DNA of 64,000 nucleotides from a virus, in the IMG/VR virus record IMGVR_UViG_3300036828_000568, positions 11,159 to 75,158 of that record, one strand, 5' to 3'. The notes under the pieces are model-generated. The model worked only from the letters and a program-made list of their open reading frames with translations. It did no database searches and was not told the origin of the DNA. Positions 42,618 to 63,005 of this stretch are shown here, in pieces. A program made the position numbers and the translations under genes. Within the stretch, counting starts at the first letter, position 1. The number at the start of each line of letters is the position of its first letter.

Positions 42618-43172
42618 ATGGAACAGGTCGTAGCCCCACGTGAATCTGTCCTTGGTTCAGGAGCGGGTGGTCCGCTTACTGCGCCTACACAATGGAATGC
42701 ATTTCAAGGATATATTCAGTATTCTTATGGGGTTGTGATTGGAAATCCTACTGGCGGTAATAAAGGGAACGGAACATTAAATCTTGATAATGGCCTTTAT
42801 CTAGATGGAGTTATTGTAGATCTTACCAAATACCTTCTTCTTACTGGCGGCACGTTGTCTGGGAAATTGACTCTAGCTATGGATCCTACTAATCCATTTG
42901 ATGCTGCCACAAAGAAATACGTTGATGCTCAAATCGTAACTGTTAATGGAAATTTTGCCAGTTATCTTCCTTTAGTTGGTGGTACGTTGACAGGACCATT
43001 AACTCTTCCTGCAGATCCAACTACTGATTTTCAAGCTGCTACGAAAATATATGTAGATAATAAAACTTCTAGTTTAATAGGAATAGCAGATGCACCGAGT
43101 GATGGAACTACCTATGGTCGGAAAAATGCGGCTTGGGTGAATGCTTCCCTAATTGATGTAGGAACCTACTGA
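42618..43172 (+). CDS. fibre-associated protein
   Basis: GGTLSG.LTL..DPT...AATK.YVD x2; foldon-like DAPSDGTTYGRKNAAW. Confidence 0.7.
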   Translation: MEQVVAPRESVLGSGAGGPLTAPTQWNAFQGYIQYSYGVVIGNPTGGNKGNGTLNLDNGLYLDGVIVDLTKYLLLTGGTLSGKLTLAMDPTNPFDAATKKYVDAQIVTVNGNFASYLPLVGGTLTGPLTLPADPTTDFQAATKIYVDNKTSSLIGIADAPSDGTTYGRKNAAWVNASLIDVGTY

Positions 43173-44302
43173 TGGTTGCTAAAATTCAAATTCTTCGTTC
43201 TGTTACACCCGGTAGTCGTCCTTCTGGAAAGACGTATGGCGAACCATATGTCAATTTTGGGGATAATCAGTTTGGGGTTTTTGACTCAAGCAACGTAGCA
43301 CGTGACCTTATTGGTGTTCCGTATTTTTCAGCAGCACTTTCTTATATTCAAGGAGCCACGGTTAATTATCAAGGGAAACTTTATCAATCTATTACGTCTG
43401 TGGCGGCAGGAGCGTGGAACCCTGCGCAATGGGCTCTCGTCGTACAGCAATTTTATGTTGATAGTTCTGTAAATGCTTTTTGCCCGCAGAATTGTCGATT
43501 TATTTGTACCGGTACAACAACAACAAATCTTTCACCGTTCAATGGTAGTAAGATAAAGATAAATGGTGCCTATTATGATATACCTGCCTCTGGTATTCAA
43601 GCTGTGAATACTAATCTTATGATAAATGGAGTAGGTGGAAGAACTCTTGCTGCAAGTGCTCCCTATTATGTTTTTGCCTTCGCTACTGGACCTACTACTA
43701 TTGGTCTTGATTTTCGAACAACTGGTGCTGGAGGTTATGCTCATGTTATGTCGTCTACGCCTGGAAATTTAGGCGTCGAAATTATGTGTAATACCGATGG
43801 CTCAGGCAAAAATGACGGATATACTTTTGTTGGATTGATTGTTGCAAGTTCCGCAAGTCAATTTAGTGATACAGTAGGTACTAGACAGGTTCTTTCTTGG
43901 TATAACAGAAGACCTAAATCATTGCTTGGACCTGCTATTGGAGCTGTTAATACGACAGCAACAGGGGCACAAGAACTTTCTCCTTCTCAACGTCAATATT
44001 TCTTAAACTGGATAAATCAGGATGTTTATTTAGGAGTAATAGGATATTCTTATATAGATACGGCCGGACAAGCTACTTTTATTCAAGTATCATCTGACGG
44101 AGTTATTCTAACAAATCCATTCCCATACAATACTCATGCAGCAGTATCATATGCTAATAATTTGAGTTTTGGTCAATGGATGGATGGTACTGCTGCTCCA
44201 TTTGCTAGTGAACTTGGCCTACACAGTAGTTCTATTCTTGGTGCTGTAACTGGTGGGACTGGAACTTTTAATGTGCGTCAAACTGGGATGATATTCGGGT
44301 GA
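43172..44302 (+). CDS. tail fibre/receptor-binding protein
   Basis: IQILRS...P....GE..VN fibre N-terminus; VLSWYNRR motif. Confidence 0.65.
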   Translation: MVAKIQILRSVTPGSRPSGKTYGEPYVNFGDNQFGVFDSSNVARDLIGVPYFSAALSYIQGATVNYQGKLYQSITSVAAGAWNPAQWALVVQQFYVDSSVNAFCPQNCRFICTGTTTTNLSPFNGSKIKINGAYYDIPASGIQAVNTNLMINGVGGRTLAASAPYYVFAFATGPTTIGLDFRTTGAGGYAHVMSSTPGNLGVEIMCNTDGSGKNDGYTFVGLIVASSASQFSDTVGTRQVLSWYNRRPKSLLGPAIGAVNTTATGAQELSPSQRQYFLNWINQDVYLGVIGYSYIDTAGQATFIQVSSDGVILTNPFPYNTHAAVSYANNLSFGQWMDGTAAPFASELGLHSSSILGAVTGGTGTFNVRQTGMIFG

Positions 44303-48279: not shown

Positions 48280-48538
48280 ACTTATATCCTTTTTTTATAT
48301 CTTGGGCATAGGCCCAATCCCGCCATTTCTTATAAAGAAGATATGGAGCTTGATGACTCAAGCCTAATTCGTCACCTATTCTCCGCCAACGCATATTTTC
48401 CCTGTCTCTTAAATCAATGATCTTAAGAATTAGAGTAGGATTACTAGGTTCGAAAGCAATTTTACGACCCTGAGGTCCTTTACGCGGTCTAAAGCCACCA
48501 GGAGCTTTACGATCGGGCACCATTTCTACACTAGCCAT
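48266..48538 (-). CDS. HTH DNA-binding protein
   Basis: MRWRRIGDELGLSHQ HTH-like segment. Confidence 0.55.
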   Translation of the reverse strand: MASVEMVPDRKAPGGFRPRKGPQGRKIAFEPSNPTLILKIIDLRDRENMRWRRIGDELGLSHQAPYLLYKKWRDWAYAQDIKKGYKYGPS

Positions 48539-50013
48539 GATCTATACTCATCTCCTTGAAGGGTGGAACTAATAGTGATTTTCTTGCGCAGTGTTTTGAT
48601 TAGCTTTTCATCTATTGTTCCACGAACCCGCAGGTCAATGTAGGTCACGGATCTAGTTTGACCTATACGATGTGCTCTATCCTCGCTCTGCTGCCTATCT
48701 TCATTGTCGAAACTGTTCGCATAGTATATTACCACATTACAGGCTGTCCAGGTATTCCCAAATTTTCCTACGCTTTGGTTACTCACGATGAATCTACATG
48801 TATCATCACGCTGAATCCGTCCTCTAGCCTCAAGACGTTCATCTAACGACGTTTCTCCCCAGAAGCTGGCTGTACTTTCGGGACCGAATTCCTTGTGAAG
48901 GCGGTCCCGAATTTTTTCTAATGCTCGCGGCCATGGGCACCATATGATTGCTTTATCAGAAGTTTGATGTAGTATTTCTACAACAGCATCAACCCGGTTT
49001 TCTGGGATATCTTCTACATTTCCCATTTCTGTTTTAACGTGTCCACATAATATGTGTTGAAGCTTGCCTAATTGGTCAAGCTTCTGGGTAGGACTAACAA
49101 ACTCACCACTAGCAAGCTCAGCCATAGCTATATCACGTACAGAATTGTATATTCGTTCTTGTTCCGGGGTCATTTCTACATCCCAGAACTGGTAAATCTT
49201 GGGTGGTAAATCTAGAACATCTTTCTTCAATACCCGGTAGCTGTGTGTCATAATCTTTTGATTAAGTTCATCTAAATTACGATAATCAACTATGATAGTA
49301 GGCTTCCTATAAAACTTTCTATGGACTTCATCCATAACTCTACTGGCAGCGGGCCGGAAGTCTATTTGTTCTGTGATTGCATACCGGTTTCTAAATCCCC
49401 AAAAAGTCTTCTGTCCTATAATTCGCCAGTCCAAATACCGGTATTGAGTGTACAGATCCATCGGGCTTTCTGGAGCTACTAGTCCACTCAGTATACGACG
49501 GGCCACGAATTTGTCTGATAATTCATCTAGAATAAACTCGGTTCGCTTTGCACTTTCATGGCAGATAGTGGTCGATTCATCTATAACGCCAATGACTTTA
49601 TGATCTTTAATAAATTCTAATAGATATTCACGTGCTTTACCTTCCCGGTTAAGGGCTTCAATATTCATTGTAAGGAATCGTGGACTCTTGGCATGAAGTA
49701 AATTTGCTTGCATCTGTCGGTGCGATGTGTTAGCACCACTCCGCCAGTAACCAATATTGAAAAATGAAAGTGTCTCTGGAGGGATCCACAATGTAAGTTC
49801 ACCCGGTTCTTCTTCTGTACCTATCCAATTTAGATAGCACCCTTTCGGTGCTAGTATAACCAGATCCTGGGCTGTTCCGGCGGTAATTCTTGCCAGCCAA
49901 TCGTCTATTATTGGCCTGGATTTACCTGTGCCTTGTTCCATCAACAAGGCATAGACGTCGTTATCCTTCAATAATTTTGCAGCAGTTTCTTGATGTTGAT
50001 AAGGTAGTTCCAT
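48526..50013 (-). CDS. SNF2-family helicase
   Basis: MEQGTGKS, IDEST, LSG..., QSEDRAHRIGQ. Confidence 0.9.
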   Translation of the reverse strand: MELPYQHQETAAKLLKDNDVYALLMEQGTGKSRPIIDDWLARITAGTAQDLVILAPKGCYLNWIGTEEEPGELTLWIPPETLSFFNIGYWRSGANTSHRQMQANLLHAKSPRFLTMNIEALNREGKAREYLLEFIKDHKVIGVIDESTTICHESAKRTEFILDELSDKFVARRILSGLVAPESPMDLYTQYRYLDWRIIGQKTFWGFRNRYAITEQIDFRPAASRVMDEVHRKFYRKPTIIVDYRNLDELNQKIMTHSYRVLKKDVLDLPPKIYQFWDVEMTPEQERIYNSVRDIAMAELASGEFVSPTQKLDQLGKLQHILCGHVKTEMGNVEDIPENRVDAVVEILHQTSDKAIIWCPWPRALEKIRDRLHKEFGPESTASFWGETSLDERLEARGRIQRDDTCRFIVSNQSVGKFGNTWTACNVVIYYANSFDNEDRQQSEDRAHRIGQTRSVTYIDLRVRGTIDEKLIKTLRKKITISSTLQGDEYRSWLV

Positions 50014-50022
50014 CGTAGTTTA

Positions 50023-50463
50023 TTATAGCATGGCTGGTCTTGGAGTTAAACCCTTATGAATTATTTCATGGATTTCTTGAAAGTTCCAATTCCCAGGTCC
50101 TCCACCCCAACATGTTGCATGAACTCCTTCTAACCCATTATAAAACAGGGCATCTGCTTGATCCCCATTCATAAACCATAGCTCATCTATCCCTTCCCAT
50201 TTTTTAGCATTAGGAATACGTCGAACAGCAATCCAAGCACTTGCACCATATCGGCAACGACGCATAAGCCATGCAACTTGAAATGAAGTGATATTTACAG
50301 CGTATGCATGAGTTCGTTTAAATTCAATCCAACCTTGTTTTCCCCAAGGGCTGCAAAATTCACTATCAGGAACTCCTGTAGATACTCCAGCAGTTTCAAT
50401 AGATGTCCATTGATACTGAGGTAGTCCTAATCGGAATTCTTTTCTAAGTCCACCATCTTTCAT
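50023..50463 (-). CDS. VRR-NUC/Holliday junction resolvase-like nuclease
   Basis: IET...GVPD...WIEFK...Q.AW. Confidence 0.75.
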   Translation of the reverse strand: MKDGGLRKEFRLGLPQYQWTSIETAGVSTGVPDSEFCSPWGKQGWIEFKRTHAYAVNITSFQVAWLMRRCRYGASAWIAVRRIPNAKKWEGIDELWFMNGDQADALFYNGLEGVHATCWGGGPGNWNFQEIHEIIHKGLTPRPAML

Positions 50464-51161
50464 GGTCGATGCAATAGGTAATCGAGTGTATAGACTAAGT
50501 CAGGTTCTAATCCTTCTTGTTTACGAAGCCATTGCAAATAATCACGAGGAATATTTCTAAACTCTTGCCCACGATGTTTGCCGAAGTTAAGAGTTTTCAA
50601 CCTAACCGGTAGGGAAGATAACCCCAACAGTTGAGCAGGGGTGTGGTGCTCTAACATTTTTTGAAGAAGGCTAGTGGTGACGGCTACATCATATAATGCT
50701 TGATGAGGAAACTTTCCGACAGGAAGGTCTGGTTTTAATTCTAACCAATATCGAAGAACCTGATTGCTATAGCTGGGAGCTCCTTGCCAAATATGCTGAG
50801 CTGCTCGCTTGGTACAAATCCATGGTACGTTAATCTCTGGTAAAAACTTAGAATCAAATGCTGCATTATGAGCGACCATAACAGAATCTTGCTTGATAAA
50901 TGTTTGCAGATGTTGGATTGTGGTGTACCTGTCCCTTGCTCCCTTTTCTTTTGTGAGTAAATCTCTAGTAATGTGGTTGACAGCCTGGGCATGGGGATTA
51001 AAAACCATATTCAGAGGTTGTTCAATATAAGTTTCATAGCAACCAACTTGTTCCCACACTTTACCGGTATGAGCTAGGTCAATCCACGCAACTTCTAAAA
51101 GCTTAGCTCCTTTATCAGGATCTAAGTCCGAAGTCTCAGTGTCTAGTACAATAAGATTCAT
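50460..51161 (-). CDS. DEDDh 3'-5' exonuclease (ExoX-like)
   Basis: LDTET, AHNAAFD, HQALYD; C-terminal FGKHRG...IPRDYLQWL. Confidence 0.9.
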   Translation of the reverse strand: MNLIVLDTETSDLDPDKGAKLLEVAWIDLAHTGKVWEQVGCYETYIEQPLNMVFNPHAQAVNHITRDLLTKEKGARDRYTTIQHLQTFIKQDSVMVAHNAAFDSKFLPEINVPWICTKRAAQHIWQGAPSYSNQVLRYWLELKPDLPVGKFPHQALYDVAVTTSLLQKMLEHHTPAQLLGLSSLPVRLKTLNFGKHRGQEFRNIPRDYLQWLRKQEGLEPDLVYTLDYLLHRP

Positions 51162-51703: not shown

Positions 51704-53692
51704 TTATTTTTTTAACTGCCCCCAATTAGGACCACACTTTACATCAGTCAACATTGGAATGGTAATTACCGGCATAGCTTCTTCCATAATACGAGCACAT
51801 TCCTTTGCTTGTTTCATATCAGTCAAGCTAAAACACAATTCATCATGCAGTTGTAACACTGGTTGATATCCAGCTTTAACAAGATCTAACATGGCCTTCT
51901 TCGTTTGGCGTGCAGCACTCCCTTGAATCATTCTATTAAATGCTTTATGAACATGTGCTCGTTTTATTGGTTGACCATACCATGAATGATTAGGGTTACG
52001 TGTACGTCTAATGGCTTCATCATAAGGACATGCATATGGTACTCCTGGTTCTGTAAAATCACGATACTCAATTGGTTCAAATAAATTAAAGTGATTACGA
52101 GCACCATCTATCAATTTTATATATCCGTGCTTTGCAGCATAGTTCATATATCGATCTGATGCTTCACGAACAAATGGTAGTTCAGCATCATACTGATTAT
52201 AAACATCCCTTGCCTCATCTTCATCCATCCCTGTCATTAAAGCAAACTTCCTAATTCCAGCTCCATAAGCTTTTGCGAAGTTAGTATCCTTGGCGCGGGG
52301 GCGCTCAAGCCTAGTGATCTGTGCTACGTAATTATGAAAGTCTGTAGAAGGATCATTACGATACCGGTCAGCCGCTTTCTTTGCGCCACGCGCACGTAAT
52401 AGTTCTGCTACGAATACGATTAACCGGTATTCTTGCTGTCTATAGTCGATGCTGCACCAGAATTCCCCCTCTTCTGGTAGAAAGCAAGACCGTACAAGCG
52501 GAGCCCATGCATCATCCCTGCTAGGCATCTGCTGTAAGGGTGGGTCCGAGTAGCTAAACCGATGGCTTTTAGCTCCACCAGTTTCTGACTTGAATTGATT
52601 AATCGTTGGGTGTACTCTTCCATTATGAGCATATGCTACTATGAATTTTTGTAAGAATTTGTCTGCTAGATCTGCTTGGTGCTTTATCTTTTGAACCATT
52701 CTTGGAAACCAGTGTCGATGACCTGTCATGACACTTTTATCAAATTTAGGATTTTTCTTTGCAGTAAATTCTTCAATTCGTATATCTAATTGTTCAAACT
52801 TCTTTTTTACCCATCGACTAGATCTAATATCTTTTAGACTAATGGGAGGAGGGAGAGTACGGCCAAAGAAATCTTGTTGAGTATTTCGTTGTATCTTAAT
52901 GCCTTCTTCTTCTAATAGGTTTGCCATGATTTCAGAATCTTTATAATTTTGTTCTTCTACACTCTTCATTATTTCTTTAGCTCTTAACGTGCTAACACGA
53001 ATTCCCTTTTGCTTCATTCTTAATGTAATAGGCATTAACTCACGTTCAACTTGATATGCTGCATTAAGATTTTCTTCTTCTAAAATAGGAAGCAGCTTAT
53101 AATAGAGTTCTAGTGTGCTTATCGCATCTTGTTCAGCATAATCACCCACCATTTCTGGTGGAAGTTTATAGAGTTCATTTTTTGAAACATTCAGTTTCTT
53201 TTTCCCTGGAACCTTTTGCCATTCACAAAGGCTATCTAGATCGAATGAAAATCTATTTTCATCAATAATAGAAGCCATTGCCATGGTATCATCTATAAGT
53301 GCAGGAGGTGGTATATCAAACATTGCTTGAATCCAACCCCAATCATATTGAAAATTGTGAAATATAAACCGGGTATGATTCTGGGCAACTAATGATTTTA
53401 GCCATTGCCCCACTAATGCCCGATTAAAATAATTTCTGCTTGCATGTCGAAGTGGGATGTAGACTTTTTCATTACGCCATGCTGCTGATATCCCACAAAT
53501 ATATCCCGTATTATTGTCATATTGATCACATTTAAAAAATCCTGGTCCTTTATTTGCTCTTAAACCAGGGTCGAAAGTTTCTGTATCGATTGATACTTCA
53601 GTTTCGTGCGTAAGATCAGGAAGCTCAGTAGGCATAATCCATTCAGAAGGGGTGTAGATATGTTTGTCTTCTACGATTGACCGCATTAACAT
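51704..53692 (-). CDS. polA: DNA polymerase family A with a 3'-5' exonuclease domain
   Basis: IDTET, FHN..YD; motif A DYRQQEYR, motif B RAKDTNFAKAYG, motif C LHDEL. Confidence 0.95.
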   Translation of the reverse strand: MLMRSIVEDKHIYTPSEWIMPTELPDLTHETEVSIDTETFDPGLRANKGPGFFKCDQYDNNTGYICGISAAWRNEKVYIPLRHASRNYFNRALVGQWLKSLVAQNHTRFIFHNFQYDWGWIQAMFDIPPPALIDDTMAMASIIDENRFSFDLDSLCEWQKVPGKKKLNVSKNELYKLPPEMVGDYAEQDAISTLELYYKLLPILEEENLNAAYQVERELMPITLRMKQKGIRVSTLRAKEIMKSVEEQNYKDSEIMANLLEEEGIKIQRNTQQDFFGRTLPPPISLKDIRSSRWVKKKFEQLDIRIEEFTAKKNPKFDKSVMTGHRHWFPRMVQKIKHQADLADKFLQKFIVAYAHNGRVHPTINQFKSETGGAKSHRFSYSDPPLQQMPSRDDAWAPLVRSCFLPEEGEFWCSIDYRQQEYRLIVFVAELLRARGAKKAADRYRNDPSTDFHNYVAQITRLERPRAKDTNFAKAYGAGIRKFALMTGMDEDEARDVYNQYDAELPFVREASDRYMNYAAKHGYIKLIDGARNHFNLFEPIEYRDFTEPGVPYACPYDEAIRRTRNPNHSWYGQPIKRAHVHKAFNRMIQGSAARQTKKAMLDLVKAGYQPVLQLHDELCFSLTDMKQAKECARIMEEAMPVITIPMLTDVKCGPNWGQLKK

Positions 53693-53953: not shown

Positions 53954-54445
53954 TCATTCCTCTTTCCGCTCCTCCAATTCCTCCATAGACTGGTTGGCAT
54001 GGTGTCCTCCATCTTCTGGTGTGCCGGGACGATTAGGCTCTATCACTCTTGGAATTTTTTCATCTAATCTAGCTAGGTCGATAATATCTTCCAACACTAA
54101 TTGTGCTGTTCTAAGATCATCGTCACTTTTATAAGAACTAAGCAAGAAGATAAATTCTTCTTCCACTATACTCAAACCATTTGCTACGGAGAAGCGACTT
54201 ACCTCATAGTGGATTTCAGTTCGTATTAACTTTCGCACTGGATTATGTGGATAGGTTTCCATAAGCTTGTCGAGGTAATGCATTGCTTTGTGAAGATCAT
54301 CTATACCACCTTTCTTCCGCCATCGTGCGACGTATTTGGTTGAGGATCCCTCTAAGTATCCAAGAGGAATGACTATACATAGATCCCAGTGCTCGTACTG
54401 AGTCTTATAGTGTTTTCCTCCCACTTGCTTTTCATTAGCGGACAT
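53954..54445 (-). CDS. DUF3310-like protein
   Basis: QVGGKHY...KYVARWRKKGG.DDL.KA.HYL. Confidence 0.8.
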   Translation of the reverse strand: MSANEKQVGGKHYKTQYEHWDLCIVIPLGYLEGSSTKYVARWRKKGGIDDLHKAMHYLDKLMETYPHNPVRKLIRTEIHYEVSRFSVANGLSIVEEEFIFLLSSYKSDDDLRTAQLVLEDIIDLARLDEKIPRVIEPNRPGTPEDGGHHANQSMEELEERKEE

Positions 54446-54975
54446 TAGATGCTGCTCCCTCTATTTCTGAGCCATTGGTTAACGTTCATGGACATGCATG
54501 ATTCACTCGCTAGACGTTGAGCTTCGTACATTGTATCTCTCATTATAGCTTCTGCGTACTTGTTACCTAGATTCATTTCATGTTCACCAGTTTCATGCAT
54601 CTCCAGCAAATCACATATTTTTACTTGGATTCTTTCTTCTTTAGTTAGTTCTGGAAGCCGGAGTTCAAGTTGTCGTAAGCCAATAGCTTCACCCTTTTCC
54701 ATTCCTTCTTTTAGCTCAGGAATTTGTTTCTTAATGCTATAGGGAACATCTCCCGCCCATAGTTCACCACTATCATGATGCAGGCAATAATAGAGTACTT
54801 CTGCACGAGGAAGTCCAAACACTTCTGTGAATATACAAGCGACGCGCCAGCAATGATGTCCGACCGTCTGCTCCTTTATCATAGGCCAAGTATGATATCG
54901 CTTGACACATCCAGCTAAGTATCGAGAACTATAGATATTGTGGCGGTCAATCACGACATCCTCCTTCTTATCCAC
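54445..54975 (-). CDS. HD-domain 5'-deoxynucleotidase (YfbR-like)
   Basis: VKRYH...TVGHH...LHHD..E...GDVP...K.CD.LE. Confidence 0.85.
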   Translation of the reverse strand: MDKKEDVVIDRHNIYSSRYLAGCVKRYHTWPMIKEQTVGHHCWRVACIFTEVFGLPRAEVLYYCLHHDSGELWAGDVPYSIKKQIPELKEGMEKGEAIGLRQLELRLPELTKEERIQVKICDLLEMHETGEHEMNLGNKYAEAIMRDTMYEAQRLASESCMSMNVNQWLRNRGSSI

Positions 54976-55955
54976 TCAGTACCAGCCTTCCGCCAGTCTT
55001 CTGCAATAACTTCTTCTATCTTTTCTAAAGCCCCACCTATATCTTTTTTCTTATATAGATAATGCGCCTCAGCCATAGGTAGAACAACCTGTGCTAAAAA
55101 TGGATTAGTGATATTTCCGCTATAAGCTTCTTCGTCCTTGTGTATGTCTTCTATCCATTGCATAGTTTCTTCCAATTCATTGTCAAACGATTCAGGATAT
55201 TTAATAAGAGGCTGTGTTCCTTCATAATCCCATCCATTCTTTAAAGCCACATATAAATTTCCTGTTGATCCAATTCGCTTCTGTAACATCGCCAGATGTT
55301 CTGTATAAAAATGTAGGTTAGTTGATATCTGCCAATATCGACCTACTTCAACCCCTACCATGCTCGCTATATATTCCTGCATCATTGGGAAATGAACTGC
55401 GTTGGCACCACAGCATCCCCATATTAAATCATTAGACCGATTAAACACAGTCATGTCTAATTTCTTAGCATTGTTTAGAATACGAAATGTAGCTACAAGA
55501 TTACAGGGTTTGATAATACTCGGTGTCACTAAATCACCATCCCACATTTGAAGTACAGCTTGCCGGGTAGAAGGGTTTCTTTTCAACTGCTTAATGATTT
55601 CACGCAGTTGATCGTATCCTAACTGAGTTCTCCACCTATGCCCGTATGCATCTGGGATTATACCATGTTCATCCCCATAGTTTTTACTGAAATCTTTGAT
55701 ATAATAGTCCAGAAATTCCCCATCATTTCTACCTGCAAGCATCCACATAGCTTCCATTAAATGAAAGAAGGGATTCGCATCTCTTACTTCATTTACTAGA
55801 ACATGCTGTTTAGGATACTCATAGCGAATACTAACTGGTGATGGACTAACCCAAGCATCACCATTCCTGGTCTTTTCTTTATTACCAGAATGTAAAACGT
55901 GTCGAACTGCTTTCGGAAGTGCATCCCTCACGTTAGCCGCATTTATCATATACAT
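54951..55955 (-). CDS. thymidylate synthase homolog, probable dUMP hydroxymethyltransferase
   Basis: ANPFFH, AYG.RWR, RQAV, PCN, RSND..WG..GAN (Asn at the dUMP-specificity position), NLH.Y. Confidence 0.85.
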   Translation of the reverse strand: MYMINAANVRDALPKAVRHVLHSGNKEKTRNGDAWVSPSPVSIRYEYPKQHVLVNEVRDANPFFHLMEAMWMLAGRNDGEFLDYYIKDFSKNYGDEHGIIPDAYGHRWRTQLGYDQLREIIKQLKRNPSTRQAVLQMWDGDLVTPSIIKPCNLVATFRILNNAKKLDMTVFNRSNDLIWGCCGANAVHFPMMQEYIASMVGVEVGRYWQISTNLHFYTEHLAMLQKRIGSTGNLYVALKNGWDYEGTQPLIKYPESFDNELEETMQWIEDIHKDEEAYSGNITNPFLAQVVLPMAEAHYLYKKKDIGGALEKIEEVIAEDWRKAGTEWIRRRMS

Positions 55956-56625
55956 GTGTTTCTCCCCCTTCCAATACGATGCGTGCACCACTCAACTTTA
56001 CATCACGTGGAGTTCCCCAGTCTATTGGGGTATAGAGTGTTTGCTGAGCTTCTTTTTCACATATCATAAGATCAAACACATGGCTCAAATAAGGTTCTGA
56101 ATATCCTTCACACACCTCCCCTAAAATAGTCATAAACTGTGGGACTGCATCAGGAGCCACGAAGTAAGCACCTCGCACAGCATATTCAGATATCCGTTCC
56201 TTTTCTTTAATACGTGAAAAATTGTGAAGCTTATCAACATAGGAAAAGGCCGGATTAGCACTTCGACTTACCAGCACTCCAATACCGGTACGAAGTTCTG
56301 TTAATAACGAAAGATCATTGGTAGAATTGAGTATATCAGAATCCATTATTAAACATGACTGAGGGCCTATGGATTCTAAAACCTTCTTGGTAGTTTCTGC
56401 GGGACCCTTTGTATCAACAATTTGAACCCATCCTCGACTACACTTATATCGAGGAGGAACTGCTGCAACTACATGTATCAATTCCCAAGGAACTGTATGA
56501 ACTACATGTTCAATCATTGGCATAGTTGTGCCTTGCCACATGATATCAATAAACGGTTTGGGAGTCATGTATCCATCTTCCCGAAACCTCTTGCTCTGTC
56601 CAGCCGCTAGGATAATCACATGCAT
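55933..56625 (-). CDS. nucleotidyltransferase (NTP-transferase family)
   Basis: IILAAGQSKRF...PKPFI; D.DI; KEK; DWGTP. Confidence 0.8.
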   Translation of the reverse strand: MHVIILAAGQSKRFREDGYMTPKPFIDIMWQGTTMPMIEHVVHTVPWELIHVVAAVPPRYKCSRGWVQIVDTKGPAETTKKVLESIGPQSCLIMDSDILNSTNDLSLLTELRTGIGVLVSRSANPAFSYVDKLHNFSRIKEKERISEYAVRGAYFVAPDAVPQFMTILGEVCEGYSEPYLSHVFDLMICEKEAQQTLYTPIDWGTPRDVKLSGARIVLEGGETHVYDKCG

Positions 56626-57292
56626 TTTCTAACTCCTTGCTTACCCTGGTTGCCCATTGGGTCGCGCTGTCAAAGATATCCCTTTTAGCGATTCGTTGTA
56701 AAGCGACCATTGCCCAGAAGACTGCTCTTCTTGCAGTATCATAGTCCTGCATAAAATTAGGCCATTCATATGATATCTTTTCATGACCACGTAGTACGAC
56801 TTCCCACCCAAGAAAAGACTGAAGCATTTTACCATGATCTACTGCCACTATGCTCGGTTTCCTTAGCCATAGTTTTGGGATAGGGTCAATTAACCTCATG
56901 AACCCATCCTTTGTTATCATTACATTATCCAGTGTTGGGTCCCCATGTATTAAGGAACGGCTCCATACATGCTGTTCCAAAAATCTTTCTAACACTAATA
57001 AGGAATCAAAATTATGCTCAATAGGATACAAATACTCCATGCAATAAGCACCGTCGTATACCATAAGGATCTTTGGACAAACGTGTTCCCCCAAATATCC
57101 CATGAACCGGGCTTGATCCTCGGCATATCCTGGTGGGCGCATTCTTTTGAAGACAGCCACACAGATTTCTGCATCACTATACCCATGCATTTCTGTTGCG
57201 AAATGGGGCGTAGGAACGTAGTCTGCCTTGTATTTTAGCGAAATCTCAGCTAACTGCCGTAGCTTCGATTTGAGCTCGGTAGCGTCGGCCAT
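56546..57292 (-). CDS. APH/choline-kinase-like phosphotransferase
   Basis: HGDPTLDNV, LIDP, D.GK.LQS. Confidence 0.8.
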   Translation of the reverse strand: MADATELKSKLRQLAEISLKYKADYVPTPHFATEMHGYSDAEICVAVFKRMRPPGYAEDQARFMGYLGEHVCPKILMVYDGAYCMEYLYPIEHNFDSLLVLERFLEQHVWSRSLIHGDPTLDNVMITKDGFMRLIDPIPKLWLRKPSIVAVDHGKMLQSFLGWEVVLRGHEKISYEWPNFMQDYDTARRAVFWAMVALQRIAKRDIFDSATQWATRVSKELENACDYPSGWTEQEVSGRWIHDSQTVY

Positions 57293-58058
57293 CCTCTAGT
57301 GCCTTCTGCCACTGAACTATCACCTCTACCCTTGGCGTACTCGCCTTATACGCACGTTCTACAGTAGAAACATAGCTTGGAAATAGTTCCTTCAGTTTAT
57401 GAGCTTCAGCATTTGAAATTTCTACTGTGCGTTCAAAACTAGTTCCACCCGGTTTATCATATCCACGCTGGTCCACGACCGTTGTGTGATACACCGCATT
57501 AGGATAACCCTTCACCAATAACTGCAACGCCAATTCCATATCTTCCCGCAGCGCAATTCGCCGGAAAACGCATTCCTTTATGACCACCGGTAGATAGTAT
57601 CCTAGAGCATAGCACATCTTACCGGGTGATTTCCAGCCGACTTCTTCTAGCTGGTTATTTCCTTGCCGCTGACCAAATCCTGCATGTGGTGTTTCTGGGC
57701 TAAGTCTTTCAGCAATACGTTCGAACTCTGGTATTAATTCTTCGCCTTTTATTTCCCGTAAGTGCCAATCTGTTTCACTAATACGGGTGGCAAACCGCAA
57801 GTCATCATCTAACATAATGATCTTTTCTTCCCCACGCCTATGAAATTCCTCTAATATCCAGGCACGTTTATCACCAATTTTCATATCTGGATCAGGTTGT
57901 GGGATGTATTCTGGCACGCCAGAAACATATTGAGCTGATAATTTAAAGATTTCTTTCTTTGGGGCGACAATGGTAGTTTGTTCCCTCAGTACCTTCGGCA
58001 ACATGCTGAGGGTTAACTGCTGGTCTGTACGACCGCGAGTTGGTATTACTATCCGCAT
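57246..58058 (-). CDS. GT-A fold glycosyltransferase (TET-associated/GREB1-like)
   Basis: IVIPTRGR, MLDDDL, EDMEL.LQLL..G, PGG.S. Confidence 0.75.
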   Translation of the reverse strand: MRIVIPTRGRTDQQLTLSMLPKVLREQTTIVAPKKEIFKLSAQYVSGVPEYIPQPDPDMKIGDKRAWILEEFHRRGEEKIIMLDDDLRFATRISETDWHLREIKGEELIPEFERIAERLSPETPHAGFGQRQGNNQLEEVGWKSPGKMCYALGYYLPVVIKECVFRRIALREDMELALQLLVKGYPNAVYHTTVVDQRGYDKPGGTSFERTVEISNAEAHKLKELFPSYVSTVERAYKASTPRVEVIVQWQKALEDGRRYRAQIEATAVS

Positions 58059-58120
58059 TTTAAGTGGCCTCTATGTTTACCCTAACATGGTGGAATTCAC
58101 TTTACAAGTTCAAAGGCAGT

Positions 58121-58867
58121 CTACCCACAGTCTATACCACCTTGACGCATTGCTTCCTTCCATTTATACTTAACATGACGTGGCCCTGGATCTACAATGC
58201 CTCCCCAATATTGCTTGAGTAAATTGTGAGCCTCATCAAGGACCTGTTGATTGCGCCAATCACTGCAACCTCCGGGGCGGTCGGACTTACTCATCTTACT
58301 AAATTCTGTACTGACAGCGGTTTTTATCCCCCGTGTGAGAAATTGTAGATGCACATCGTGCTCTTCATCATGTGGCACACGAAAAGCAGGCCATGGATCT
58401 GGGAATAAATCCCGATTGTATCCGTGGATATCATTAAACCGAGTACATTCTTTGAATTCCCTAGGGGTAAGATGGCTCCATGCCTTATCTACCAGACCTA
58501 CCATGGGGTATCTGTCTAGTAGATCGAACATGGCCCCGATCATACGTTCTGTGGCTTCTATTTCGTATGGCTGAATACGGGCAAATTTTGAATCTGATAG
58601 ACGTTGGTAGAAGGCAAGGTCATCATCTATCATAATTACCTTACCGGTATTTCGCATGTGTAGAATAAACTGTCGGGTGGGACCAATACCATATGCATCA
58701 CATGGTGTGATATGAACATCCGGAAAAGCTTCTTGGTACAATTCTACTTGTTCAGGTGGAACTACAAGTGTCACGTAATGCCATAGCCGTCTAGAAAGAT
58801 TCATAAGCGACTTTTGCTTGTAGTGCCTGGACCGGGAAGGAATCACAATCTGTAGATCACCGAACAT
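58121..58867 (-). CDS. second GT-A fold glycosyltransferase paralog
   Basis: IVIPSRSR, MIDDDL, EEHDV.LQFL..G, PGGCS..R; start re-assigned using the GGAGG RBS. Confidence 0.75.
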   Translation of the reverse strand: MFGDLQIVIPSRSRHYKQKSLMNLSRRLWHYVTLVVPPEQVELYQEAFPDVHITPCDAYGIGPTRQFILHMRNTGKVIMIDDDLAFYQRLSDSKFARIQPYEIEATERMIGAMFDLLDRYPMVGLVDKAWSHLTPREFKECTRFNDIHGYNRDLFPDPWPAFRVPHDEEHDVHLQFLTRGIKTAVSTEFSKMSKSDRPGGCSDWRNQQVLDEAHNLLKQYWGGIVDPGPRHVKYKWKEAMRQGGIDCG

Positions 58868-59768
58868 TTGGCCCTCCATGTTTGAACGTTTGTCGGGGGC
58901 GACCCCATCCATTGGCTGTCTTCGTATACTTACTCCATTCACAAAGACAGTTTTGTAGGTCTTGGTTGTGCAGGCGTTCCATTCCCATGCTATTCAGCTT
59001 TGGGTTTATCCGATTGCTCAATAGCGTAAGTTCTTGCAGCCATTGACCCTTCGGCCATGGTTCCTCCATAGGACGTTCTAATACAATGTTCAAACCGCGC
59101 ATACTTCCCGGTCCAGGAGTAGCCCAAGACCACCAATCTTTTGCTTCTTGCATGAATGGTAGATACTTGAGGTCTGCTACAAGCTGTCCAGTCATAAAGC
59201 TTCCCAGACCCTCATTCTGTAACCATTCAAACATTTCACATAGCAATGGAGAATGCGTTTGCCATGCTTCAAACGTCCTTCGCCAGCTCTTTTGAACACA
59301 CCATTGATGAATGTAGTGGCAGACGCCTTCTCCTTTAGGAAACCCTGGCTTCCCGGTGATGATAAAGGAACCGGTTACATGAGGAGTGGGAAGTTTTAGT
59401 ATAAGATCTGTTAGTATAGTAACATCATTGTGATTAATATACTTTTCAAATACAGATTCGTTATCAAGCAGAGGTTCATTAAAAAGAGCATCACAAGTGC
59501 TAATACGATTAAACCAACGATAGGCCACCGTCGCAGGAAATACGATAGCATCCTCGGTATATCTGTTACGGATAGATCGCTGATAATGTTTGGATACAGC
59601 ATCGTCTTCCCTATGTACATTTGTGAACCTATATTCTTGTAGAATAGGGTCTTTAGTCCATGGCGGTGGGTCACTTCTTTCAAACCTGCGAAACCGTATG
59701 GTTTCGCGTTCGAATATAAAAGCCACGAATCTGTCTATGGGGTCATTGATTTCTGTGATGTGTACCAT
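58857..59768 (-). CDS. 5-hmdU DNA kinase-like protein (aGPT-Pplase1 family)
   Basis: ERE.IR..R...PPWTKDPIL..YRFTNV.REDD; G.FM..Q.VADL; GPGS.RGL; QN.LCE.SKY. Confidence 0.8.
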   Translation of the reverse strand: MVHITEINDPIDRFVAFIFERETIRFRRFERSDPPPWTKDPILQEYRFTNVHREDDAVSKHYQRSIRNRYTEDAIVFPATVAYRWFNRISTCDALFNEPLLDNESVFEKYINHNDVTILTDLILKLPTPHVTGSFIITGKPGFPKGEGVCHYIHQWCVQKSWRRTFEAWQTHSPLLCEMFEWLQNEGLGSFMTGQLVADLKYLPFMQEAKDWWSWATPGPGSMRGLNIVLERPMEEPWPKGQWLQELTLLSNRINPKLNSMGMERLHNQDLQNCLCEWSKYTKTANGWGRPRQTFKHGGPNVR

Positions 59769-60166
59769 GGCACGAACTTTAGGATTTCCTTAGGGTCGAA
59801 GCGAGGATCAGACCAGTTGCCATTGAATGGTATACAACGATCATCTATTGTGATGAACGCACTTGGCTTTTCTGCCACGAAACGTAGTCTTTCTGCCAGA
59901 GTACTATCTGGTCCTGCGTGTTGTTTAACATAGTGATACATGGCAAGTCTACCATCTGCATCAGAAGATCGAGCAGAAAATATGCAAATGTCAAAGTGTA
60001 CTAGAGCAGTTTCTAACCATTCTATTACTCCTGGAACCGGTGGATCCGGTATTATATTAGCACCCCGCCAGCCTGATGTATAGCTATGGACACAGCCATC
60101 GAAATCCAGCAGCAGGATTAGCTTCCCTTGTGGTTTTCGCCGAGGGTCAGTCGAAGAGCTGTCCAT
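59735..60166 (-). CDS. HAD-family phosphatase
   Basis: DFDG..HSY, FSAR, KP...IDDR. Confidence 0.8.
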   Translation of the reverse strand: MDSSSTDPRRKPQGKLILLLDFDGCVHSYTSGWRGANIIPDPPVPGVIEWLETALVHFDICIFSARSSDADGRLAMYHYVKQHAGPDSTLAERLRFVAEKPSAFITIDDRCIPFNGNWSDPRFDPKEILKFVPWYTSQKSMTP

Positions 60167-61706
60167 AGTAATGCCTCTTTTCAGGTTGCACCACGATTAG
60201 ATTTTCATATGTTCTTGTGATTCCGGTATAAAACACTCGTGTTTCCTCATCTCGATTCGTGGAAGCAATTTTTTCTGATGCTTTAGCAGTGTCAGAAAGA
60301 AGAACAACCGTGTCGGCTTGCCCTCCCTTAACCCGATGTATCGTTGAAATGTGGATATGGGGTTTGTCCAAGATACTGAAACCGTTATCGAGTACCTTCC
60401 CAATATATTCAGCGTCTTGAGGTTCAATTTCGGTAAAGACATCTTTCCATTCTCCTTCTGCCAATAGCCCAAAGTCCCGCTTTAATTCAGTCATAGTAAT
60501 CTTAGGAGGTTCAGGCTGGTCAGCTAAACGAGTTAGCAATACCTTGAATCCCCTCTTTATTAACCCTTTCTTTTTCTTATGACCTTCTGATGGTAATAGA
60601 TTATAGATACGAACAGCATCATCAACTGGTATGGGGAACCCTTCATGTAACTGTTTCCATGCATCGATAGCTGTCGCCTGGGTTGGTTTGATGCTCGGGT
60701 TTTCAAAATACCGGTAAAGCAACCCATTCTTCCTACAGAATGGGATAAAATGTTTCCTCAACATTTTTACCGTGCGCCCTAATAACATCACATTACCGAG
60801 GGCAGGATCACATTGGCTTGGGTCTAACTGAGCGATTCCTTCTATAGTTTTATAAGACCCTAGTGCATCTCTTGGGTTCCATTCTTTTTCACGTCGATCA
60901 TATATCTGGGTTATTACTCGATTAGCAAGATGATGAACCTTACGAGGAACCCGGTAACTCTGTTTTAATTGTTGAACTTTTCCGGGCATATGAATAAAGT
61001 GTTCGGAGGCTCCAGCCCATGTGAAAATGGTTTGATCATCATCACCAGCAATATACAATCTTTTCACGTGACGAGCAAGTTGTTGAACCATTATCCATTG
61101 TATTTCACTAAGGTCCTGTGCTTCATCTACCATTAATACATCTAATAGTGGTGGGCTGTCAAGTTTAATGAATTCTTCAAGCATATCAGTGAAGTCATAT
61201 AACCCTTGTTCTTCTTTATAGGCCCGCAGGGCCTTTATCACTCTCCAAGCACGTTCTGAATCTGGTAATGCGTAATCGTACATCGTTAACACTTCTGCTA
61301 ATGGTCTTTTAGTTATGCGCGAAAAGTTTTCAAGGAATAAAATCAGATCATCACCGAAGAAATTAGTATAGGTCCCATCATCGGATGATAAACTACCATG
61401 TAGCTCAAGGCCGTTAGCTTCCCCAAATTCGTGAACTCGTGCGCCGGTAAAAACCTGACTTGTATTGAGCCCCAAGTGTCGAAATGCTGCGCTGTGTAGA
61501 GTATTAAAATATCGGAATTCTTTTCGCTCCAATCTAAACCTATCAGAAGCACGACTAATTGCCTCCTCTACCCCACGTTTGGTGAAGGTCATAAACCCAA
61601 TGCGATCAGGCGGGACACCGTGGGCCATTTCCTGGTCCACGGTATCCAACAATGTGCTTGTCTTACCCGTTCCCGGTGGGCCGAGGAAGATCGTTGGCTC
61701 TATCAT
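60147..61706 (-). CDS. UvrD/Rep-like SF1 helicase
   Basis: GPPGTGKT, TLHS, VDEAQD, GDDDQ, QSYR, TIH.VKG; start re-assigned to MIEPT. Confidence 0.9.
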   Translation of the reverse strand: MIEPTIFLGPPGTGKTSTLLDTVDQEMAHGVPPDRIGFMTFTKRGVEEAISRASDRFRLERKEFRYFNTLHSAAFRHLGLNTSQVFTGARVHEFGEANGLELHGSLSSDDGTYTNFFGDDLILFLENFSRITKRPLAEVLTMYDYALPDSERAWRVIKALRAYKEEQGLYDFTDMLEEFIKLDSPPLLDVLMVDEAQDLSEIQWIMVQQLARHVKRLYIAGDDDQTIFTWAGASEHFIHMPGKVQQLKQSYRVPRKVHHLANRVITQIYDRREKEWNPRDALGSYKTIEGIAQLDPSQCDPALGNVMLLGRTVKMLRKHFIPFCRKNGLLYRYFENPSIKPTQATAIDAWKQLHEGFPIPVDDAVRIYNLLPSEGHKKKKGLIKRGFKVLLTRLADQPEPPKITMTELKRDFGLLAEGEWKDVFTEIEPQDAEYIGKVLDNGFSILDKPHIHISTIHRVKGGQADTVVLLSDTAKASEKIASTNRDEETRVFYTGITRTYENLIVVQPEKRHYYGQLFD

Positions 61707-61890
61707 GTATCTGTTTCCGTTTACGTGAGTAGTGAACATCACCAAGTAGTTTCATAAATCCGTGGACAGACATACTTCCTCTTGCCTTTTGTCCTCTTCT
61801 TATGAAAGAATCTAACGAATCTGGTTTAAGACATCTTTCTAGAGCATTGTAAATGATCGCAGTCACTCTTTCACTGTCTAGATCTGACAT
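61663..61890 (-). CDS. hypothetical protein
   Basis: TAATG coupling to the upstream ORF. Confidence 0.45.
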   Translation of the reverse strand: MSDLDSERVTAIIYNALERCLKPDSLDSFIRRGQKARGSMSVHGFMKLLGDVHYSRKRKQIHDRANDLPRPTGNG

Positions 61891-62072: not shown

Positions 62073-62870
62073 TTAGAAGGGGATTTCAGACTCTGTACTC
62101 CCCGCCTCTTCGTGCCTTGCATCGGGAGCTGCGGCTTTCTTTTCACCCTTACGAACTGCCATGCATAAGGCTTTGGCTTCGCTGTATTCAGTCTTATTCA
62201 CAAATCCTTCATCCTGGAACTTAAGACCGAACCACTTGCCGATAGCGTTGCTCGCAGGAATCGTGGTTAACCGGTATTTCCGGCTGAAGCTCGGCAAGAA
62301 GTCATTGGTTTGGGGATGCTTAAACTGTTTGTAGAAGGTGTTCCATTGCCGAGCGAAGGTATGTTTTGTCCCACTACATGGAAGAACGTAGGGCTGTCCG
62401 TCCACAAGCAAGAAAAATTCCCTTGTGTCCTGGATTACGTTCCCATTTTCACCACGAACAAGGACTTGCTTTTCACGACCATCATCCCCGCGTACCATAC
62501 TGGTCTTCATATCAAGGGGCGGGGCATCATGTCTTGCAACAAATCCCTGCCGGTTAGGAAGCCACTCGATCCATGTGCGCTGCATTTCACATGGAATCAC
62601 AATGATTCCTTCTTCGCCGTTTTTGATAGGTTCTAGGGCATTTCGCAGCCAAAAGTCACCCGGTTCGGCTCCCTCGATGTGATTATCCCCACGCTTGTCA
62701 ACAGCCGGGGAATTTGTCTGGAGGACATATATAAGAGGAAGTAGTTGGTCTTCAGGCTTGAAGCTGATGCCCATTCCGGCATCGCCCTTGGTAACTTCCA
62801 TTAAGTCGTCTGGAAGTTGAGCTTTGCTCGTAGTCAACGCTGTGCTGGACTCTTTCGGTTCTTTAGCCAT
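62073..62870 (-). CDS. putative single-stranded DNA-binding protein
   Basis: LQ..SP, GA.PGD, EW.P...G.V..H; acidic tail ending ESEIPF. Confidence 0.6.
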   Translation of the reverse strand: MAKEPKESSTALTTSKAQLPDDLMEVTKGDAGMGISFKPEDQLLPLIYVLQTNSPAVDKRGDNHIEGAEPGDFWLRNALEPIKNGEEGIIVIPCEMQRTWIEWLPNRQGFVARHDAPPLDMKTSMVRGDDGREKQVLVRGENGNVIQDTREFFLLVDGQPYVLPCSGTKHTFARQWNTFYKQFKHPQTNDFLPSFSRKYRLTTIPASNAIGKWFGLKFQDEGFVNKTEYSEAKALCMAVRKGEKKAAAPDARHEEAGSTESEIPF

Positions 62871-63005
62871 TGTCATCACTCCTGGTTCCACAGAACTTCT
62901 TCGCCGGGCGCTTACAGTCGCCCCTACAGTTTGAAGCACGTCTATTCGTACTGGCGAAAGATTCTGCTGCGGGTAGCGTAAACCAAAAACCTATAGAGCG
63001 CCACA

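Follow-up and report, generated by a model that had tools for sequence, protein, structure and literature searches.

A phage gene cluster predicted to produce O-glycosylated 5-hydroxymethyluracil DNA without a DNA kinase

To our knowledge, every biochemically solved route of thymidine hypermodification employs a P-loop DNA kinase first and an amino-acid:DNA transferase thereafter. A cluster of nine open reading frames (ORFs) at positions 53954-60166 of a viral DNA stretch belongs to a genome in which neither enzyme was found. The stretch (hereafter the window) comprises 64,000 nucleotides and represents the right-hand 64 kb of the 75,158-bp IMG/VR virus record IMGVR_UViG_3300036828_000568, which is rated 97% complete. 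The cluster encodes a HAD phosphatase, a protein of family PF18723, two glycosyltransferases (GT1 and GT2), an APH-fold kinase, a nucleotidyltransferase, a thymidylate synthase (TS) homolog, an HD-domain nucleotidase and a DUF3310 protein. The account favored here, held with somewhat better than even confidence, is that DNA containing 5-hydroxymethyluracil (hmU) is made by a pre-replicative route and is then O-glycosylated by GT2 and GT1, with a nucleoside diphosphate sugar (NDP-sugar) supplied by the kinase, the phosphatase and the nucleotidyltransferase and with the participation of the PF18723 protein, a predicted HhH enzyme. On the best reading, such a glycosylated-hmU pathway needs no DNA kinase.

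The proven kinases of 5-hydroxymethyldeoxyuridine (5-hmdU) in DNA, such as PaMx11 gp49 and M6 gp54, are stand-alone P-loop proteins, and clade 2 (family PF18724) holds the proven transferases (Lee et al. 2021, Table 1, PMC8989533). In phage PaMx11, the P-loop kinase gp49 adjoins a PF18723 protein, gp50. An earlier sequence-only reading of the locus had assigned it a core of hydroxymethylase plus 5-hmdU DNA kinase; the latter is absent from the genome. A profile search of the genome returned no match to PF18748, PF18751, AAA_33 or PF18724. Because PF18748 is insensitive, with the validated PaMx11 gp49 reaching only 18 bits, tblastn searches with PaMx11 gp49 and gp46 were added, and their best E-values against the whole genome were 0.89 and 3.0, respectively. 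A Walker A search of all ORFs of at least 60 aa gave just two proteins, the UvrD helicase and one of 376 aa from the structural region, and a looser pattern added an SNF2 helicase and three unrelated ORFs; the control, PaMx11 gp49, carries the Walker A sequence GTSGSGKS. The amino-acid:DNA transferase, which the sequence-only reading had likewise failed to see, is missing as well: PF18724 matched no protein of the cluster or the genome, and the control, PaMx11 gp46, scores E 2e-27 against it. Since the genome lacks a P-loop 5-hmdU DNA kinase, a phospho-hmU intermediate, previously offered as one possible acceptor of the glycosyltransferases, has no enzyme to make it and is unsupported, unless the APH-fold kinase produces it. 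The insensitive PF18748 profile also found no match in the cultured phages PhiJL001 and LuckyBarnes or in three contigs of the clade. The 376-aa protein (43172-44302, plus strand), with a Walker A-like GSRPSGKT and a below-cut-off CBM_5_12 carbohydrate-binding match, probably serves in the tail or in host recognition and not as a kinase.

ORF families were called by Pfam, PHROG and NCBIfam scans, which upheld the gene families recognized earlier; the tightly packed nine-gene arrangement near polA was confirmed as well. The nine ORFs share the minus strand, and neighbors abut or overlap, mostly by a few codons, with a sole gap of 62 nt between GT1 and GT2. They form part of a head-to-tail series of 11 minus-strand ORFs (61745 to 51704) that begins with a UvrD/Rep-type SF1 helicase (60147..61745; Pfam UvrD-helicase E 2e-24) and ends with a family A DNA polymerase (polA, 51704..53692). 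No minus-strand terminator-like site was found within 53954-60166; the first strong terminator-like hairpin on this strand, at 51197-51170, closes the polA unit. This hairpin sets the unit apart from two minus-strand genes downstream of polA, one for an RNase T-type exonuclease (50460-51161) and the other for an SNF2-type helicase (48526-50013).

An alignment of kinase homologs was used to retrieve 13 IMG/VR loci, and their gene content was compared by tblastn. The same genes occur in the same order in 11 of the 13 (L004-L014), as far as each contig extends. The conserved block, UvrD-HAD-PF18723-GT1-GT2-kinase-nucleotidyltransferase-TS-HD-DUF3310-PolA, recurs at 35-75% identity, and its arrangement is therefore not due to chance. 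At least nine IMG/VR phage contigs besides this one have the entire set. Identity is 35-45% for the kinase and 60-75% for GT2, the TS homolog and the HD protein. The UvrD helicase, first gene of the block, lies directly upstream in L007-L012 (67-74% identity), and the family A polymerase is the downstream neighbor in all relatives (52-60% identity in L006, L009, L011, L013 and L014). About 50 homolog clusters of the kinase occur in metagenomes, none of them named. Among cultured phages, megablast with the cluster gave no match at the DNA level, tblastn with the nucleotidyltransferase gave nothing, and tblastn with the kinase gave only a 66-residue match in Synechococcus phage S-CBWM1, so that the donor branch is without a cultured relative. 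The smaller set of TS homolog, PF18723 protein and TAGT-family glycosyltransferase is common to PhiJL001 and LuckyBarnes. Additionally, in L009 (6372-7022) and L011 (6328-6981) the UvrD helicase and HAD genes flank a conserved Cys-rich ORF of 216-217 aa without a Pfam match; the two copies are 74% identical, and the window has no counterpart.

Glycosyltransferases and the putative donor branch

GT1 (58121..58942, minus strand) and GT2 (57246..58058, minus strand) are GT-A glycosyltransferases of the TAGT family, matching PF20691 with 64.3 and 56.3 bits against a cut-off of 27.5 (E 2e-17 and 6e-15, respectively) and phrog_842 (E 4e-38 for GT2). Both carry a DDD motif, and they share 26% identity; phmmer of GT2 against PDB sequences returned nothing. 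Orthologs of GT1 align from residue 26-30 onward, and its translation probably begins at Met22 or Met26 (near 58879 or 58867). Identity within the clade is 61-73% for GT2 versus 45-53% for GT1, and identity to gp22, the single glycosyltransferase of PhiJL001, is 30.6% versus 25%. Because GT2 is the better conserved and the closer to the PhiJL001 enzyme, it is taken as the likely base-proximal transferase, with GT1 likely performing a second step.

TAGT members glycosylate 5-hydroxymethylcytosine (5hmC) or glucosyl-5hmC in DNA (PMC13390438; bioRxiv 10.1101/2023.12.21.572611). In T6-like phages they add glucose to glucosyl-5hmC, and members of the family work with phage TET enzymes (PMC13390438). 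In a metagenome survey, the neighbors of phage GT-A genes included ThyS, second glycosyltransferases, epimerases and APH phosphotransferases, and no hmU product was characterized (bioRxiv 10.1101/2023.12.21.572611).

The sequence-only reading had proposed that the kinase and the nucleotidyltransferase make a donor for the two glycosyltransferases, and a plausible NDP-sugar branch can be recognized among the neighboring genes. The kinase (56546..57292, minus strand; 248 aa) appears to be a minimal enzyme of the APH/choline-kinase fold, with a sub-threshold APH match. Its catalytic loop HGDPTxDN and a D-P-I-P motif are invariant in 26 homologs. The structures that resemble its AlphaFold model (pLDDT 88.5) include LicA choline kinase (Z 10.0), methylthioribose kinase (Z 9.8) and NahK (Z 8.1), as well as choline and ethanolamine kinases, APH enzymes, fructosamine-3-kinase, maltokinase and glucosamine kinase; Foldseek with the same model returned generic protein kinases only, at a TM-score of about 0.33. 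By analogy, the proposed substrate is a sugar or sugar phosphate, which would be phosphorylated at C1.

The nucleotidyltransferase (55933..56625, minus strand; 230 aa) is a predicted sugar-1-phosphate nucleotidylyltransferase, with matches to NTP_transf_3 (E 4e-5, just below the cut-off) and Arch_glmU (E 9e-6) and with the signature LAAGxSxRF...PKPF. A profile of its orthologs matches the dual sugar-1-phosphate nucleotidylyltransferase ST0452 over its full length in PDB (E 3e-7), and also UGPase, GlmU and MurU.

The HAD protein (59735..60166, minus strand; 143 aa) is a small, capless HAD-like phosphatase without a Pfam match, whose four HAD motifs (DFDG, S-x-R-S, K and IDD) show no variation among five orthologs. 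Weak HAD_SAK_2 matches were obtained in 5/5 members (best E 0.0024), and its nearest ESM Atlas clusters are HAD families; searches of PDB sequences with the kinase and HAD profiles gave nothing useful. It also matches phrog_1238, labeled 'phosphoheptose isomerase', which is the product name of RB69 gp51. AfhF and GmhB take the non-anomeric phosphate off a sugar bisphosphate, and the same role is proposed here. By this analogy, the HAD protein probably supplies the third activity of the donor branch, in line with the AfhE/AfhF route, and its grouping with the kinase and the nucleotidyltransferase was missed by the sequence-only reading. A role as polynucleotide 3'-phosphatase, considered because of weak matches to PNKP-annotated genes, is ranked below the sugar-bisphosphate role, since the HAD gene is co-conserved with the kinase and the nucleotidyltransferase and shares its PHROG label with RB69 gp51.

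The precedent for such a branch comes from phages with arabinosyl-5-hydroxycytosine, in which AfhE (RB69 gp52:53) is a fused APH-like kinase and MurU-like nucleotidyltransferase and AfhF (RB69 gp51) is a HAD phosphatase (PMC13326640). These enzymes convert arabinose-5-phosphate to the 1,5-bisphosphate, the 1-phosphate and finally UDP-arabinofuranose, and the three activities supply this donor for DNA glycosylation in RB69, DLP3 and HY126 (PMC13326640). The kinase of the window aligns with the catalytic loop of RB69 gp52 at an hhalign probability of 93% over 55 columns; the HAD protein matches RB69 gp51 with a pairwise BLASTP E of 8e-4 and an hhalign probability of 10%, and the nucleotidyltransferase matches RB69 gp53 at a probability of 19%, in the N-terminal motif only. 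Judged from these alignments, the likeness appears functional rather than orthologous. Since the genome contains neither a SIS-domain sugar-phosphate isomerase nor a transaldolase, the sugar precursor must be a host metabolite. For the sugar itself, a pentofuranose such as arabinose offers the best precedent.

In two relatives, L011 (10717-11463) and likewise L012, the genes for kinase and nucleotidyltransferase are separated by one for a TAL_FSA transaldolase/fructose-6-phosphate aldolase (Pfam E 7e-35). At L015 (9872-11935), in a 103-kb phage contig, a distant kinase homolog lies near an NTP_transf_3 gene, with a 203-aa ORF in between and with dUTPase-like and C5 cytosine methylase-like genes nearby; this contig may represent a different DNA sugar-modification system. 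The L015 pairing and the transaldolase gene tie the kinase to the nucleotidyltransferase and to sugar-phosphate metabolism.

The acceptor of the two glycosyltransferases need not be DNA. If they and the NDP-sugar branch acted on a host surface polysaccharide or on virion proteins, the DNA would contain plain 5-hmdU, and the adjacency of the genes would reflect early-gene organization. The GT-A fold is generic, and about 65% of the surveyed phage GT-A contigs lie away from base-modification genes (bioRxiv 10.1101/2023.12.21.572611), a figure that counts against a DNA acceptor; the fold alone is therefore no proof of one. However, both enzymes belong specifically to the TAGT family, and their genes sit between those of the PF18723 protein and the TS homolog, within the replication module. 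This order is kept even in relatives with only 35-45% kinase identity, and the combination of TS homolog, PF18723 protein and TAGT enzyme extends to other phage families. Position and conserved synteny thus support a hydroxymethylpyrimidine in DNA as the acceptor, and a non-DNA target is considered unlikely.

The PF18723 protein

The protein encoded at 58857..59768 (minus strand; 303 aa) belongs to family PF18723 (Pfam E 3e-34), scoring 119 bits against a cut-off of 25 and spanning profile positions 4-275 of 281. The current Pfam name of the family is '5-hmdU DNA kinase, helical domain' (HMUDK_hel), and close metagenome homologs are annotated with the older name 'alpha-glutamyl/putrescinyl thymine pyrophosphorylase clade 1' (aGPT-Pplase clade 1); the family comprises 3436 representative clusters. 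The sequence-only reading, which took the protein for one like aGPT-Pplase1 or 5-hmdU DNA kinase, had placed it in the right family, but the kinase part of that description does not hold, as the protein contains neither a Walker A motif nor a kinase domain and its predicted fold is that of a glycosylase. An AlphaFold model built from a 64-sequence alignment (pLDDT 95.4) was compared with known structures by VIA-align, and its 25 best matches all belong to the HhH glycosylase superfamily (Mag1, Ogg, EndoIII, AlkA and MutY among them), to the queuine-salvage protein DUF2419 or to PaMx11 gp46, at Z 5.3-10, with the next match at Z 4.7. The match to PaMx11 gp46 (8z2m) covers 217 residues at Z 9.5. 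Foldseek with the model gave nothing at E <= 0.001, the top row being PaMx11 gp46 at E 0.25, and phmmer against PDB sequences gave nothing. On its predicted structure, the protein is thus an HhH DNA-glycosylase-like fold and not a kinase.

Twelve residues are invariant in the 64-sequence alignment: R21, R53, D56, N87, F191, D211, G219, G221, G225, C276, E277 and K280. An hhalign comparison sets Cys276 on the catalytic C247 of PaMx11 gp46, in a weak match of 21 columns (E 0.046, probability 1%) that agrees with the match between the modeled folds. In the same weak match, Q271/N272 stand where gp46 has its metal ligands E243/T244. By its fold and its alignment, the protein appears to be a paralog of the amino-acid:DNA transferase, with a Cys aligned at the same position; the sequence-only reading had called that transferase missing and overlooked this kinship. 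The HhH fold and the gp46 match suggest an enzyme acting on a flipped-out pyrimidine.

Relatives of the family provide further context. PF18723 domains are fused to a family A DNA polymerase, or to PrimPol and an AAA_25 helicase, in proteins P0298, P0306, P0286 and P0271, which suggests that the family acts at or near the replication fork. From the same fusions, a uracil- or thymine-excising glycosylase has been considered as a candidate function. A Pam3_Gp34 match (Pfam E 5e-37) was found in a 288-aa protein encoded at 62073-62939 (minus strand); Pseudanabaena phage Pam3 also carries a PF18723 homolog, and the match hints at a common early-gene module. The gp55 protein of phage M6 is presumably of clade 1 as well, an assignment taken from its position. 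In a published lysate reconstitution of M6 glycinylation, gp54 and gp51 were sufficient, with gp52, gp53 and gp55 left out, so that the presumed clade-1 protein was dispensable.

The invariant Cys-Glu pair is the basis of a different account, in which the canonical order of reactions is kept without a P-loop enzyme: the APH-fold kinase would phosphorylate 5-hmdU in DNA, the Cys of the PF18723 protein would displace the phosphate with a nucleophile, and the glycosyltransferases would decorate the resulting adduct. The lack of a P-loop kinase in this genome, the adjacency of PF18723 and DNA kinase genes in characterized phages, and the resemblance to gp46 in fold and in the placement of its Cys all speak for this route. 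On the other hand, the hhalign match carries a probability of 1% only, and the metal ligands of gp46 align with Q and N. PhiJL001 and LuckyBarnes possess PF18723 and TAGT proteins but neither a homolog of this kinase nor a PF18748 match. Furthermore, the structural neighbors of the kinase are small-molecule kinases, and even in the distant L015 it is paired with a nucleotidyltransferase, with no PF18723 match in the 20.6-kb locus. This route is held to be improbable. Similarly doubtful is the broader proposal that the PF18723 protein is a Cys-dependent enzyme acting on unphosphorylated 5-hmdU DNA, for example by generating the C5 exocyclic methylene and coupling it to a sugar-derived or other nucleophile, or one fed by an APH-fold, non-P-loop nucleobase kinase. 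If either were true, a transferase class without an assigned function would be making a glycosyl- or phosphoglycosyl-thymidine new to chemistry. The locus also offers a clean system in which to study the function of clade-1 aGPT-Pplase proteins.

The predicted hydroxymethyluracil core

In the preferred account, with hmU made before replication and glycosylated afterward, the first step falls to the TS homolog (54951..55991, minus strand; 346 aa; Pfam E 3e-29; phrog_5131 E 4e-95). In a HMMER alignment to TS 6auj, the Asn at the TS N177 position (GAN on pfN) and the catalytic Cys (kPCn on aPCh) are kept, which confirms the dUMP-type Asn noticed in the sequence-only reading; the CMP hydroxymethylase MilA has an Asp where this Asn stands. 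The TS segment IWDEW is changed to FSKNY. In TS, the first-position Trp shields the exocyclic methylene intermediate, and its mutation lets solvent nucleophiles trap that intermediate. The change fits a hydroxymethylase, although it is no proof of one. The only full-length phage matches are the homologs from Mesyanzhinovviridae hmU clusters, at about 40% identity, followed by ViI-type proteins. Taken together, these features suggest that the protein is a dUMP hydroxymethylase. That it is an ordinary dTMP synthase, leaving thymine in the DNA, no hydroxymethyl acceptor for the glycosyltransferases and the PF18723 gene as a relic, is very improbable: the catalytic Cys and the dUMP-type Asn mark true thymidylate synthases too, but the Trp pair is replaced, the protein is about 80 residues longer than bacterial TS and far under every NCBIfam thymidylate synthase equivalog cut-off, its only full-length relatives occur in hmU hypermodification clusters, and its PF18723, HD and DUF3310 partners are all conserved.

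The HD protein (54445..54975, minus strand) is a YfbR-like 5'-deoxynucleotidase by its matches (PF12917 E 4e-7; phrog_6047/7076) and is syntenic with PaMx11 gp52 and PhiJL001 gp25. It is proposed to clear dTMP or another canonical dNMP. The DUF3310 protein (53954..54445, minus strand; PF11753 E 2e-5) is syntenic with PaMx11 gp53 and PhiJL001 gp26 and matches the DUF3310 segment of several PHROGs labeled nucleotide kinase, such as phrog_236 (E 1e-13); its direct match to T7 gp1.7 is weak (E 0.06). Possibly it is a T7 gp1.7-type nucleotide kinase for 5-hydroxymethyl-dUMP (hmdUMP). Because of the PHROG labels, it probably belongs to the pre-replicative supply of hmdUTP, rather than merely following the cluster as the sequence-only reading had it. 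No dCMP deaminase was found.

Predicted pathway and comparison with known systems

As judged from gene families and synteny, the TS homolog would convert dUMP to 5-hmdUMP, the HD nucleotidase would lower the pool of the canonical nucleotide that competes with it, phosphorylation of hmdUMP may fall to the DUF3310 protein, and the phage family A polymerase would then build hmU DNA. In parallel, by analogy with the RB69 route, the APH-fold kinase would phosphorylate C1 of a sugar phosphate from the host, the HAD phosphatase would strip the other phosphate to leave a sugar-1-phosphate, and the nucleotidyltransferase would turn the latter into an NDP-sugar. GT2 would move the sugar onto the 5-CH2OH of hmU in DNA, GT1 would add a second sugar or the other anomer, and the PF18723 HhH protein may act on a flipped-out 5-substituted uracil. 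Literature searches found no report of glycosylated hmU from this gene set.

Besides the distribution of phage GT-A genes given above, several points weigh against this scheme. The hydroxymethylase as opposed to methylase activity of the TS homolog is not provable from its sequence, and the catalytic-looking, conserved Cys-Glu of the PF18723 protein has no part in the steps proposed. The donor enzymes resemble RB69 gp51-53 at the motif level only, and a kinase acting on the anomeric position of a free sugar would leave the HAD enzyme superfluous to the branch. The sugar precursor is a guess, in a genome without an isomerase or transaldolase. The genome record is 97%, not 100%, complete, and the phage and its clade are known from sequence.

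The clade and the simpler gene sets of PhiJL001 and LuckyBarnes share a pattern in which the hmU core and the clade-1 HhH protein are kept, while kinase and transferase are replaced by glycosyltransferases. The base expected from this replacement is an O-glycosylated hmU with a phage-made sugar, which would be the phage equivalent of base J. Bulky sugar-bearing bases of this type bear on the evasion of restriction and CRISPR, on targeting by type IV restriction and on sequencing bias in viromes.

The thymidine hypermodification clusters of Pseudomonas phages PaMx11 and M6, Salmonella phage ViI and Delftia phage PhiW-14 (PMC5889632; PMC8989533) resemble the locus in their core of TS homolog, HD nucleotidase and DUF3310 protein, arranged in the same order beside polA. 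PaMx11 gp51-53 are 29-39% identical to the corresponding proteins of the window, and in PaMx11-type clusters, too, the PF18723 gene lies directly upstream of the core. However, PaMx11 carries the kinase gp49, the transferase gp46 and tailoring enzymes upstream, whereas the genome studied here has neither a gp49-type nor a gp46-type gene and instead has an NDP-sugar branch along with a pair of TAGT glycosyltransferases. An O-glycosylated hmU, and not an amino-acid-derived side chain, is therefore the expected product.

RB69 (gp51, gp52:53 and gp55), DLP3 (gp81-83) and HY126 (AfhE/AfhF) likewise combine an APH-fold kinase, a HAD phosphatase and a MurU-like nucleotidyltransferase with DNA glycosyltransferases and a TS homolog (PMC13326640). 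The kinase and the nucleotidyltransferase are fused in AfhE but are separate genes in the window and in all relatives, and the window genome has no arabinose-5-phosphate isomerase (no SIS-domain gene). In addition, the glycosyltransferases of the window are of the GT-A type (TAGT), whereas the arabinosyltransferases of RB69 and DLP3, as we read the published table, gave GT-B-type structural matches (PMC13326640), and the proposed acceptor is hmU rather than the 5-hydroxycytosine of RB69-type phages.

Among cultured phages, PhiJL001 (gp18-gp28), which infects Alphaproteobacteria, is syntenic with the window from PF18723 to polA, but it has one glycosyltransferase and an Nmad5 protein and lacks the kinase, the nucleotidyltransferase and the HAD protein. 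The Brevibacterium phage LuckyBarnes (gp38-gp41) has a longer TS homolog (517 aa), two glycosyltransferases and a PF18723 protein, and it lacks the same three genes. Like the window, both phages have no P-loop kinase match. Having none of the donor genes, they presumably use a host UDP-sugar.

Finally, the predicted pathway shares with base J (beta-D-glucosyl-hydroxymethyluracil) of kinetoplastids and with the TET/5mYOX-TAGT pathways of phages (PMC8256090; bioRxiv 10.1101/2023.12.21.572611; PMC13229309) the post-replicative, GT-A-type glycosylation of a hydroxymethylpyrimidine in DNA. Unlike in these routes, hmU would here arise pre-replicatively through the TS homolog and not by oxidation of T within DNA, and the sugar donor would probably be made by the phage itself.

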